Positions 5,965 to 59,086 of a stretch of DNA of 64,000 nucleotides are shown here, piece after piece. Position 1 is the stretch's first letter. Every line of letters begins with the position of its first letter. The notes beneath the pieces are model-generated. The model had not been told where the DNA came from, did not search any database, and saw only the letters and a program-made list of their open reading frames with translations. The stretch lies in NCBI GenBank assembly GCA_964016885.1, contig OZ024740.1, positions 351,230,001 to 351,294,000 of the forward strand, read 5' to 3'. The DNA is from Eledone cirrhosa. Its lineage: Eukaryota. Position numbers and translations under genes: made by a program.

Positions 5965-6661
5965 GAGAGTATTGTAGTTTGCTTGAAGCATTGTGGAACA
6001 ATAAGTAAATATTTATAAGTCGTTTGGAAGCCTCGACAATGCAAATGGGTAAATCTCCGGGTAACAAGGTCCGGTGGTGGAGAGAGAGATATGTAAGTGG
6101 GTGTACGTTGAGATGCGTGGTGTGTATAAGATGTGTGAGATGTGTAGAATGAAGGGAAGAGTAAAAGGGTAAAAATAATAATAACAACACAAGAGAGAGA
6201 GTTACCTTGGGAGAGATTTAATAGTCCCTATATATTTCGGATTCAAGTCCATCAACTGGGGTTTTTTCCGGGGTGGGGGAAAAGGTTGTCTGTCGGACAA
6301 CTCGGAACGCGACTTTCGCTGTTTGTTGATTTGTTGATATTGAAATCAACAAACAGCGAAAGACGCGTTCCGAGTTGTCCGACAGACAACCTTTTCCCCC
6401 ACCCCGGAAAAAACCCCAGTTGATGGACTTGAATCCGAAATATATAGGGACTATTAAATCTCTCCCAAGGTAACTCTCTCTCTTGTGTTGTTATTATTAT
6501 TTTTACCCTTTTACTCTTCCCTTCATTCTACACATCTCACACATCTTATACACACCACGCATCTCAACGTACACCCACTTACATATCTCTCTCTCCACCA
6601 CTGGACCTTGTTACCCGGAGATTTACCCATTTGCATTGTCGAGGCTTCCAAACGACTTATA
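5965..6661. mobile_element. Foldback PLE-terminus insertion, family F (arms 6014-6332 / 6343-6661, tail 5965-6013) in (TA)n
   Basis: About 320 bp near-perfect inverted repeat with 10 nt spacer; degenerate HHR-like motif ccc-CAGUUGA-u-gga/ucc-GAAA-uauaua-ggg at 6414-6449 and its mirror. Confidence 0.75.
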
Positions 6662-6781
6662 TATATATATATATATATATATATATATATATATATATAT
6701 ATATATATATATATATATATATGTATATATATATATATATATATATATATATATATATATATATGTATGTATGTATATATA

Positions 6782-7390
6782 CAGGTCAGGTCACCAGTTG
6801 GTGCTACTGGTAACATGTATCCCAGTACAACATGTCTCATGGTCGGGTCGTTGGCGACTAAACTGGCAATCCCACCAAGGTTTCTTGGTGACGAGGGTGA
6901 CTTTGGACATCCTGCAGGACTAAAAACAAAACCTGTCAAAGGGCAAAGGAGCTCTTAAGAGTCAATGGCCATCCAAAATCACCGGGAGAGATGACCCCTT
7001 AGCCTTTGTCAGGGCAGAATTCTAGGAGAAGGAAAACTCTGATATAACACCTGCAACCCTGATGGTATCCAATGATGTTGACTTCTTCTTTTTGGTAAAT
7101 ATCATCTTGGTTAGGAGAGTGGGGCTGGCTTTGTGCAATGCTTTTGCTCACTATAAAAGCTTCACGGCACAGGTATTGCTTTATATCTGGAGATCTCTCT
7201 GCACTTGTCGCCACATGGTACCATGGGCCCAGCACTATGTGTCAATAATTGTCACAAGTGTAGTGTTTGTACCAGAGTTTTCAAGTCGCACGCTGGACTA
7301 AAAAGTCACACTTGTTCAGCGTATCAGTAGGTGTTCTTCTACATTCATATAAAGTAGTGGCCGTACTCGAAAACGAATTGGCAGCCACCA
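6782..7390 (+). mobile_element. Non-autonomous RTE-derived (SINE-like) repeat
   Basis: RTE 5'UTR-like motif ctaggagaaggaaaactctga at 7022-7042; homologous copies at 15658-16133, 33525-33809, 36100-36262; 3' end runs into microsatellite. Confidence 0.6.
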
Positions 7391-8084
7391 TATATATATA
7401 TGTATATATGTATATATATGTATTTATATATACGTATATGTATGTATATATATATGTATGTATATATATATGTATATATATATATATGTATGTATATATA
7501 TGTATATATATATATGTATATATATATATGTATATATATATGTATATATATGTATATATATATATGTATATATATATGTATATATATGTATATATATATG
7601 TATACATATATATAATGTGTTTATATATATGTATATATATATATATATGTATATATATGTATATATATATATGTATGTATATATATGTATATATATATAT
7701 ATATATATATATATATATATATATATATATATATATATATATATATATATATATATATATGTGTGTGTGTGTGTATATGTATATATATGTATATATATAT
7801 GTATGTATATATATGTATATATATGTATATATATATATATATATGTATATATATATGTATGTATATATATATGTATGTATATATATGTATATAAATGTGT
7901 ATATATATGTGCATATATATGTATGTATATATATGTATATATATATATGTATATATATATATGTATATATATGTATATATATGTATGTATATATATGTAC
8001 ATATATATATGTATATATATGTATTTATATTTATATATGTATATTTATGTATATATATGTATGTATATATATGTATATATATAT
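7391..8084. repeat. (TA)n/(TATG)n microsatellite
   Basis: Direct inspection. Confidence 0.95.
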
Positions 8085-58000: not shown

Positions 58001-58180
58001 TACAGATTGACTTTATTAGTTTCAGAAGATCTCGTTAAGGGTGAAAGCAGCGATTCTTTGCTTAAACTTTAATCTGTTATTTAATAAATATTTGCTCTAC
58101 GGTTCTTATATATTTGATATATATTTATCCTTATCGAGCCCTCTTTGGATTTTAGTCTTCAATTTTATTATTATTACTAT
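55048..58180 (+). mobile_element. PLE family C with inverted 5' pLTR (about 55048-55258) and 3' pLTR+tail; ORF about 55262-57104 with lesions near 55733 and 55842
   Basis: SDKTGNLY, LKDHK, FIQFDI, GGLYRDD, WFNPPYN, CNCRNRADCPLSGKC, GIY-YIG region; 5' segment is the reverse complement of about 57878-58092. Confidence 0.95.
58018..58068 (+). ncRNA. Hammerhead ribozyme family C (U4A variant); mirror copy 55069-55119 on minus
   Basis: AGUUU/AAACU (extended ACAGAUUG/UAAUCUGU), CAGAAGA, stem II C(U/C)C/GGG, GAAA, GCA/UGC, CUU. Confidence 0.7.
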
Positions 58181-58291
58181 ATATATTTATATATATATAT
58201 ATATATATATATATTTATATATATATATATATATATATATATATATATATATATATATATATATATATATATATATATATATATATATGTA

Positions 58292-59086
58292 TATTGTTAT
58301 ACTTGGGGAGGGTCATATTTGTGTAATATTGCCAGAATTAATAGACAACAACATGACGGTAACATAGACAACATAGAAATTAGAATAATATCTAAACATA
58401 GGAATGACCCAGCAGATAGGCAAATCAGAGTGGCCAGTGAAATAGAAATTAGAAGACCAAAGCTAAACAGAAAGAATGAGTGGAACAACAACAACACTGA
58501 CCTAAGAGAAGTGTAAATAAGTAAATAAAATAAAATAAAATAAATACATACACAAGCACAATAACAACAATCACATAAACACACACTAGTCACCCAGCAG
58601 ACACAACAATATACACACTAGTCACACAGCAAACGTAACACTATACACACACGCATACGCATGCGCAAAGAAGACAAAATAAAATAAACAAACAAGCAAA
58701 TAAATAAATAAATATATAGACAGATTGAATAAAAAATGGCGTAGACATACAACACAACAGGAGGAAAAATATAACAACACTGACGATGTTGCAGATGTGC
58801 AACGAAAGATTTATGTAAATTATGTAAACTATATATATGTGTTTGTGTCTATATTGTATCTGTATTATTTTTGACCGTCGGTCAGTCAATGGCAACATTG
58901 AGGACCGATTAAGTTAGATCGCAGATATAAAAGACAGCGAGAAGCGAAAACCAACCAAACAGTGAGTGTGTTCTGTTATTAATTCTGGCAATATTACACA
59001 AATATGACCCTCCCCAAGTATAACAATATTTGTTTCGACACACGATTTCATATAAAAAACCTCGCTAAACTAATTCATCGCCGCTA
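58292..59086 (+). mobile_element. PLE 3' end family D with short inverted arm (58292-58343); HHR 58777-58816
   Basis: GIY-YIG C-terminus [21 protein letters not shown]; aca-CUGACGA-u-stem II-GAAA-gauu-UA-ugu. Confidence 0.8.

Follow-up and report, generated by a model that had tools for sequence, protein, structure and literature searches.

The stretch of Eledone cirrhosa DNA analysed here (the window; 64,000 nt, positions 351,230,001 to 351,294,000 of contig OZ024740.1, assembly GCA_964016885.1) carries 12 insertions which, judging by their sequence, are Penelope-like retroelements (PLEs) with a C-terminal endonuclease (EN) and belong to eight families, A to H (Table 1). All 12 are built of two arms joined head-to-head, as an earlier note on this DNA had claimed, but only 11 are palindromic. 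In these, self-alignment finds an inverted repeat of 85-100% identity which reaches one end of the insertion exactly and leaves a tail of 53-137 nt at the opposite end. We refer to the arm without the tail as flush and to the other as tailed, and number arm positions from the flush site (0), with minus on the 5' side and plus running into the tail. The insertion at 45358-45498 is head-to-head without being a palindrome: its inverted tail arm (-2..+80) abuts its flush arm (-59..+1). Inverted arms are present in all eight families by self-alignment of the window; the earlier note had rightly seen several families but counted about seven, and family C is related to D. The fixed ends that it gave for B and D are found in the window copies. 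Family B has the flush end ...TTCCTA in four copies and the tail end ...CTTCGTTA; families D and C have the flush end ...AACAATA in three copies, and the D tail end is ...GCCGCTA. The ends generally face (TA)n microsatellite, as noted before, but 47107-47298 is bordered on its right by (CT)n. The region 44378-47298 holds a chain of six insertions from five families, each lying in a TA tract adjoining the previous one; in this chain, insertions seed targets for later insertions.

Table 1. Arms, foldbacks and sequence motifs of the PLE insertions in the window
Feature	Position	Strand	Description
Family A foldback	5965..6661		tailed arm left (inverted), flush arm right; both reach about -320
Family B flush arm	16959..17170	-	211 nt, inverted
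Family B tailed arm	17171..19928	+	5'-truncated; frameshifted RT + GIY-YIG ORF 17162-18576, 3' region, 80-nt tail
Type I hammerhead-like motif, family B	19740..19835	+	core TTGATAA at 19746, U3-A8 pair, GAAA at 19807
TATA-like TATTTAAA at 19760 and initiator-like TCAGT (A at 19789)	19760..19793	+	spacing 29 nt
Family C foldback	44378..44608		tail ~60 nt, left side
Family B mini foldback, divergent subfamily	45099..45300		arm likeness 86%
Family B head-to-head insertion	45358..45498		inverted tail arm 45358-45439 abutting flush arm 45438-45498; no common sequence
Family E foldback	45514..46418		tail ~60 nt at left; both ends identical in second copy L060
Family F foldback	46465..47029		tail ~135 nt at left; both ends common to other copies
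Family G foldback	47107..47298		65-nt tail, ends in (CT)n; other copies behind Hydra-like ORFs
Family B mini foldback	53788..54002		both arms end at initiator-like site; centre A/T-rich filler
Family D foldback	54091..54746		arms ~300 nt, 58-nt tail
Family H flush arm	55048..55258	-	inverted
Family H tailed arm	55259..58180	+	broken RT + GIY-YIG ORF 55244-57104; 91-nt tail
Family D insertion	58292..59086		flush arm 52 nt, tailed arm 740 nt

Broken open reading frames (ORFs) of families B, H, D and A, read by eye, contain a reverse transcriptase (RT) with YRDD/YVDD followed by a C-terminal YIG motif. Copies of G and C lie behind Hydra-like and D-like RT/endonuclease ORFs, respectively, and no ORF link was found for E and F in the copies sampled. 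Pfam matched no family in any of the eight ORF pieces from the window, so the Hydra, Neptune and Nematis labels used here rest on protein motifs, likewise read by eye. Families B, G and H were assigned to the Hydra clade, which is marked by DKT, CxCX5C, no CCHH, CxxC and CxH around E and N, and a (TA)n target. The family H ORF contains DKT (HSDKTG), the CxCX5C linker (CNCRNRADC) and CDLC and has no CCHH; that of family B has Hydra-type motifs with one linker Cys altered and CxH present, and G was placed by its tblastn neighbourhood only. Long copies of family D carry a Neptune-type ORF with a CX4CxxC linker (CTNRKCIIC) and, in one copy (L093), a C..C..H..H pattern; the Neptune features, this linker and CCHH in the C-terminal EN, apply to C and D. 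Longer copies of family A encode RT and C-terminal GIY-YIG in one ORF with DKG and a reduced linker motif, and by motif this family appears Nematis-like. Together with a single RT + GIY-YIG ORF (except E and F), the insertions show the inverted pseudo-long terminal repeat (pLTR) arrangement and the one-sided tail of endonuclease-containing (EN+) PLEs. The link to Naiad/Chlamys PLEs drawn in the earlier note is rejected: these have an N-terminal GIY-YIG and lack a canonical hammerhead, and the endonuclease is C-terminal in A, B, D and H. Fragments of Hydra-type PLE ORFs from other families, at least six, are also present in the window (592-1758, 13438-15090, 20462-20842, 50939-51922, 60954-61778 and 63201-63620).

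One end site per arm

The genome was searched with pieces common to both arms, to keep the hits free of structure bias, and the 30 best loci per search were taken; first-look candidates, including those of a first family B search described below, numbered 821, 626, 1501, 2446 and 445, and 20 family D places were extended. A 63-nt family B query gave no genome matches, and longer queries matched. All arms were mapped onto single natural copies. Two of 75 two-armed rows were removed, namely, family H L028, a doubtful 64-nt match with ends at -5/-26, and family D L058 (+46/+58), in which arms of two adjacent insertions had been wrongly paired and would have counted as equal ends. The resulting set contains 73 two-armed insertions (27 B, 19 D, 18 H and 9 A). 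A first family B search used a whole foldback as query and is therefore shape-biased; its 30 rows were kept out of the 73 and served only for junctions and covariation.

In none of the 73 insertions do both arms end at the same site, and equal-ended arms are likewise absent from the 25 insertions in structure-blind stretches. End positions are sharply bimodal in B, D and A. In family B, 57 of 57 insertions have one end at 0..+3 and the other at +75..+80. Ends of family D fall at 0 (17) and +58 (14), with a minor group at +44..50, those of family H at +1 (14) and +91 (14), with a minor site at +38, and those of family A at +8..13 and +47..52. Termini are thus neither random nor symmetric, which supports the earlier claim of two fixed UA-containing end points, one per arm. 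In read-through copies of B, D, H and A the termini run on into where the ORF begins. Both end sites of family D lie inside the ORF start, near codons 8 and 28, those of family A around the start codon and those of family B about 170 and 90 nt upstream of the ORF start.

The element sites match the TA target by 2-5 bases, and the tail sites in read-through copies read TAT or TAC. At flush junctions (26 insertions passing filters), 14 of 23 junction types, which are not fully independent, match the TA tract by at least three bases, versus 22% of nearby positions (P=7e-5), bearing out the view that the ends overlap the TA target. Homology is insufficient to define a site, because an ATATA between the two family D sites is used by none of the 40 mapped D ends. 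The sites appear to be positional and also to pair with the primer, as judged from these matches. Hairpins just after the start sites have folding energies not above those of shuffles (z -0.1 to -1.7); a short RCUC/GAGY stem follows both sites, by eye, in families B and H only.

Prevalence was estimated in an 864-kb sample, consisting of the window, a total of 200 kb of flanking DNA and six 100-kb stretches at round coordinates. Of 516 TA-bounded segments, 83 have an inverted repeat touching an end. Asymmetric foldbacks (offset 30-200 nt) number 52, or ~60 per Mb, and symmetric ones ten, which by inspection are three simple-repeat segments, one copy of family D divided by an internal run of TA, two copies of a MITE-like family (MITE, miniature inverted-repeat transposable element), one segment inside a larger palindrome, one true flush-flush family G copy and two unassigned. 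At least 48 of the 78 TA-anchored ends of B, D and H belong to one-of-each pairs, a lower bound because pairs escape detection where the partner arm is very short or insertions are nested; to speak of a default pathway, as the earlier note did, is therefore fair. Symmetric TA-flanked elements with true terminal inverted repeats, near 100,077,032 and 250,092,490 of G000:C1, are probably real MITEs, and a 3.9-kb TA-flanked element at G000:C1:351149842-351153787 has symmetric inverted ends of 312 bp that are 98% alike.

The flanks beyond the TA tracts are not mirrored, and central junctions vary between copies. We compared a family B arm with two Illumina runs of restriction-site-associated DNA (RAD) from other samples under the same species label and with two contig sets. 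In the two runs, 3878 and 3612 reads have loose (AT)n ends at the flush site, 19849, reads also end at the tail end, and opposite-strand joints are present (e.g. 19789-19858 and 19792-19855). Family B ends also occur in contigs from a run that bears the label of a different organism. Since these ends and inversion joints recur in reads of other samples, family B insertions as a class are real DNA and no assembly artefact; the earlier note had named such an artefact as the result that would undo its case.

Inner stops of the arms

In the earlier note the arms were described as variably 5'-truncated. Truncated they are, but many stop at one family-specific point: 5' ends are non-random and cluster near -59 (B), -70 (H), -300 (D) and -320 (A). 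Families B and H have hammerhead-like motifs. For family B, the cut is predicted after 19829, 19 nt before the flush site, and 0 of 200 shuffles score alike in the descriptor search; for family H, with the variant core CAGAAGA, it is predicted 27 nt before the flush site. Both cores (19740-19835 and 58018-58070) are variants, with U3-A8 in long family B copies and A at position 4 in every family H context listed. For families A, C, D, E, F and G, the descriptor search of test pieces gave no hammerhead. Rfam gave no matches in the window at gathering score and, at E up to 10 in 44300-59200, only sub-threshold hairpin-type matches and no hammerhead family. Priming sites downstream of a ribozyme, as proposed earlier, are thus compatible with B and H but not with the tested pieces of the other six families.

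A pile-up of 5' ends at the hammerhead cut was not seen for family B. Most family B arms stop at a TATA/initiator-like pair located inside the hammerhead stem II loop; in full-length copies, the stop point reads TC/AGT and is preceded at a distance of 29 nt by TATTTAAA. At 19785-19796, read depth for family B increases ~50-fold or more in the two RAD runs, where enzyme sites and upstream divergence bias the jump, and 20-30-fold in contigs. From this spacing and the depth jump we infer that the stop is the predicted 5' end of the RNA, i.e. the transcription start. The stop also resembles a splice acceptor, and a cis- or trans-spliced 5' end was considered and rejected: the arms retain AG and have no fixed leader, so that a start site is preferred.

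Minis of family B are missing the TATA box and one half of the hammerhead. Most of their central junctions are unique and contain filler that is A/T-rich or duplicated. As most family B arms stop at the TATA/initiator-like site, the minis look like run-off by-products made anew with each insertion rather than self-copying MITEs. The MITE-like palindromes of the earlier note resemble MITEs in shape, but the likeness ends there, because the central junctions are rebuilt in each insertion. The central filler is often AAAAAC...TTTT (53788-54002, L001-L030), bases that the full-length copies seen do not have upstream; it may stem from untemplated addition, from slippage or from a cap that was copied.

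Probable two-ended priming and its alternatives

Arm geometry helps to distinguish between the ways in which such insertions could arise. The flush arm extends more than 15 nt further 5' than the tailed arm in 37 of 73 insertions and the tailed arm further in 15, the remaining 21 being equal (37 vs 15, P=0.003). Fifteen of the 73 have a tailed arm that ends at or short of the flush site, so that the arms have almost no common sequence, as in the family D insertions L099 (+3..+46 with -281..0) and L095 (+38..+58 with -841..0). The 25 insertions in blind stretches have the flush arm further in 12, the tailed arm further in three and equal arms in ten, and the tailed arm ends at or before the flush site in four. 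Hops, in which an arm resumes near its partner's stop, are found in family D (L037), family B (L129) and family H (29549 of the window with its flanks). Arms of one insertion also covary: in 46 family B insertions, including the shape-biased set, they differ by 2.2 positions per 45 nt, versus 7.5 for shuffled partners, a value matched in none of 5000 shuffles. Two cDNAs from one RNA would be the best fit to the arm geometry, hops and shared variants. In keeping with this geometry, and in agreement with the earlier note, reverse transcription of the element RNA is probably primed by both 3' ends of a cut (TA)n, each end using a different one of the two sites, before the resulting cDNAs are joined to each other.

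Priming of both cut ends on two separate RNAs of one locus, held by an asymmetric dimer, is unlikely. Dual priming of this kind has been proposed for L1 (PMC2837659), it fits the covariation of the arms, and overlapping arms (58 of 73) would need no strand displacement. However, two free RNAs choosing either site should leave about half of the insertions equal-ended, whereas none of the 73 is, and abutting arms and hops point to one template rather than two. Arms also rarely mix subfamilies, with one or two of 46 listed pairs differing at diagnostic sites.

Snap-back, the published reading for Adineta PLEs (PMC3846280), is distinctly unlikely for the insertions at large. Here a single cDNA (or antisense RNA) would fold back on itself and be copied to the flush point, with the endonuclease resolving the product, and PMC8557442 attributes the tail to such resolution. 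Variants shared by the arms of one insertion, as well as short loops between near-equal arms in 21 of 73, are in line with this. Yet the copied flush arm would have to lie inside the tailed arm, which argues against a single folded-back cDNA: in 37 of 73 it is the flush arm that goes further, and in 15 the two arms do not overlap. Moreover, equal arms cluster at one family-specific stop, which is explained by run-off of two cDNAs. As a general route, snap-back is contradicted by the non-overlapping arms, and it may account for a minority of insertions.

The palindromes could also be MITE-like units copied whole, either by a DNA transposase acting at TA or by RT from a hairpin RNA. They have TA flanks, inverted repeats and hundreds of candidates per family, and one central junction recurs in three of 23 family B minis. 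Nevertheless, we regard this as highly improbable: no insertion of the 73 has symmetric ends, the arms grade into PLE ORFs, family B minis have no TATA box of their own, and the recurring junction occurs in two different subfamilies, the other junctions being mostly unique. Long-read data are known to contain artefactual foldback reads, but the probability of an assembly or chimeric-read artefact is negligible here in view of unmirrored flanks, arms 85-99% alike, fixed asymmetric ends and the matching Illumina reads of the two other samples.

Several observations weigh against priming at one fixed site from each cut end. One family G insertion (near 250,066,251 of G000:C1) has both arms flush, and one of family D (L091) ends at -42. 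Mismatches occur at the joint in part of the family A junctions. Sites here match TA by 2-5 bases, whereas the RT start sites of the Poseidon PLE of Anolis carolinensis (PAc; PMC11167929) are not homologous to its target. The 21 insertions with near-equal arms and tiny loops are also explained by fold-back. As to the predicted RNA 5' end, the bias in the RAD depth jump applies, promoter-like spacing is clear for B only, family H has an initiator-like motif without TATA, and no clear promoter motif was found at the stop points of A and D. Target site duplications are masked inside (TA)n, and the support throughout is sequence geometry.

Two-ended priming could proceed as follows. The GIY-YIG domain would cut both strands of (TA)n, and a dimer would hold one RNA at the distal and proximal UAU sites. 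RT starting at the distal site would either halt near the proximal site or proceed by displacing the other cDNA, while RT at the proximal site would have a free path and so more often reach further. The two cDNA 3' ends would be joined via microhomology or filler bases and host repair would fill in. When sites near the RNA 5' end are used, synthesis of the two cDNAs would end by run-off at the transcription start, yielding abundant mini-palindromes; long copies would need a second copy of the sites, carried 3' on a read-through RNA that has not been cleaved. PLE RTs are not known to have an RNase H. In its broadest form, the proposal is that in three PLE clades normal integration is obligatory two-ended priming, with a dimer and one RNA paired at two UAU sites with the cut (TA)n ends, its output being the tail, the inverted pLTR and promoter-less minis made by run-off (in family B from a start inside a split hammerhead); we consider the chances of this for and against to be evenly balanced. 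In a family B tandem, L007 (G000:C1:27007948-27011155), a few T residues link the ORF start with the predicted RNA 5' end; this looks like a template jump producing a non-autonomous tandem unit.

Other retroelements are present in the window. Broken gag-protease-RT-RNase H-integrase frames at 9292-12933 (+) indicate, by motifs, a Gypsy-type long terminal repeat (LTR) retrotransposon, and the repeat pair 8850-9006 / 13093-13237 may be remnants of its LTRs. A long interspersed nuclear element in pieces lies at 36469-41708 (+), with an ORF1 zinc knuckle and an endonuclease-RT ORF2, and a second copy, ~67% alike, at 26956-28950 (-); by motifs we take both to be Tx1/L1-like. A tRNA-like Rfam match at 45003-45072 (-), just below the cut-off (28.9 vs 29 bits), is possibly the head of a short interspersed nuclear element.

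Comparison with known systems

PLEs are the closest mobile relatives of telomerase. PMC8557442 states the formation of their inverted ends as unsolved, and PMC11167929 leaves the steps after first-strand synthesis open. Between them, these papers have already described the layout and two internal RT start sites; the present sequences add counts from three clades which support two-ended priming as the route that PLEs usually take. No paper applying twin priming to PLEs was found in the open-access literature, and the available part of a 2026 retrozyme preprint does not treat inverted ends. At ~60 insertions per Mb, the rules (site per end, microhomology, run-off point, arm bias) become countable and yield in vitro predictions. 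For annotators, many TA-flanked 'MITEs' in such genomes would be PLE by-products.

The closest published unit is that of EN+ PLEs, with which the insertions share the 5'-truncated inverted copy placed head-to-head, the one-sided extension and the C-terminal GIY-YIG. PMC8557442 describes an inverted 5'-truncated copy whose 30-40-bp tail is in many cases confined to one end, and leaves the mechanism undefined, and PMC3846280 proposes self-priming on an antisense template for rotifer PLEs (Pen2a, Adineta vaga). Tails here are about 50-137 nt rather than 30-40, and one-of-each pairing was counted here, whereas those papers invoke self-priming or endonuclease resolution. Section 11 of PMC8557442 gives the Hydra clade motifs and (TA)n insertion, a preference noted for Hydra and Naiad families. 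Families B, G and H resemble this clade in their short element, C-terminal EN, DKT, CxCX5C, (TA)n target and lack of CCHH; unlike there, the hammerhead-like cores of B and H are variant, as described above.

PAc, in vitro, has two internal RT start sites that equal its tail ends, cuts and extends both target strands, is predicted to act as a dimer and has no need of ribozyme cleavage (PMC11167929). Two internal sites bounding the tail are common to PAc and the insertions, and the D and A sites lie at the ORF start as in PAc, while those of family B are about 90-170 nt upstream of it. The main text of PMC11167929 neither ties one site to each cut end nor explains the inverted arm. Twin and dual priming were defined for L1 (PMC2837659). 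The insertions share with L1 twin priming the probable use of both cut ends, inverted head-to-head cDNAs and abutting arms (45358-45498). In L1, it is a variant outcome that combines a poly(A) start with a chance internal site and yields an inversion with deletion. Here, by contrast, both sites are fixed, the arms mostly duplicate the same sequence, and two-ended priming is apparently the majority outcome.

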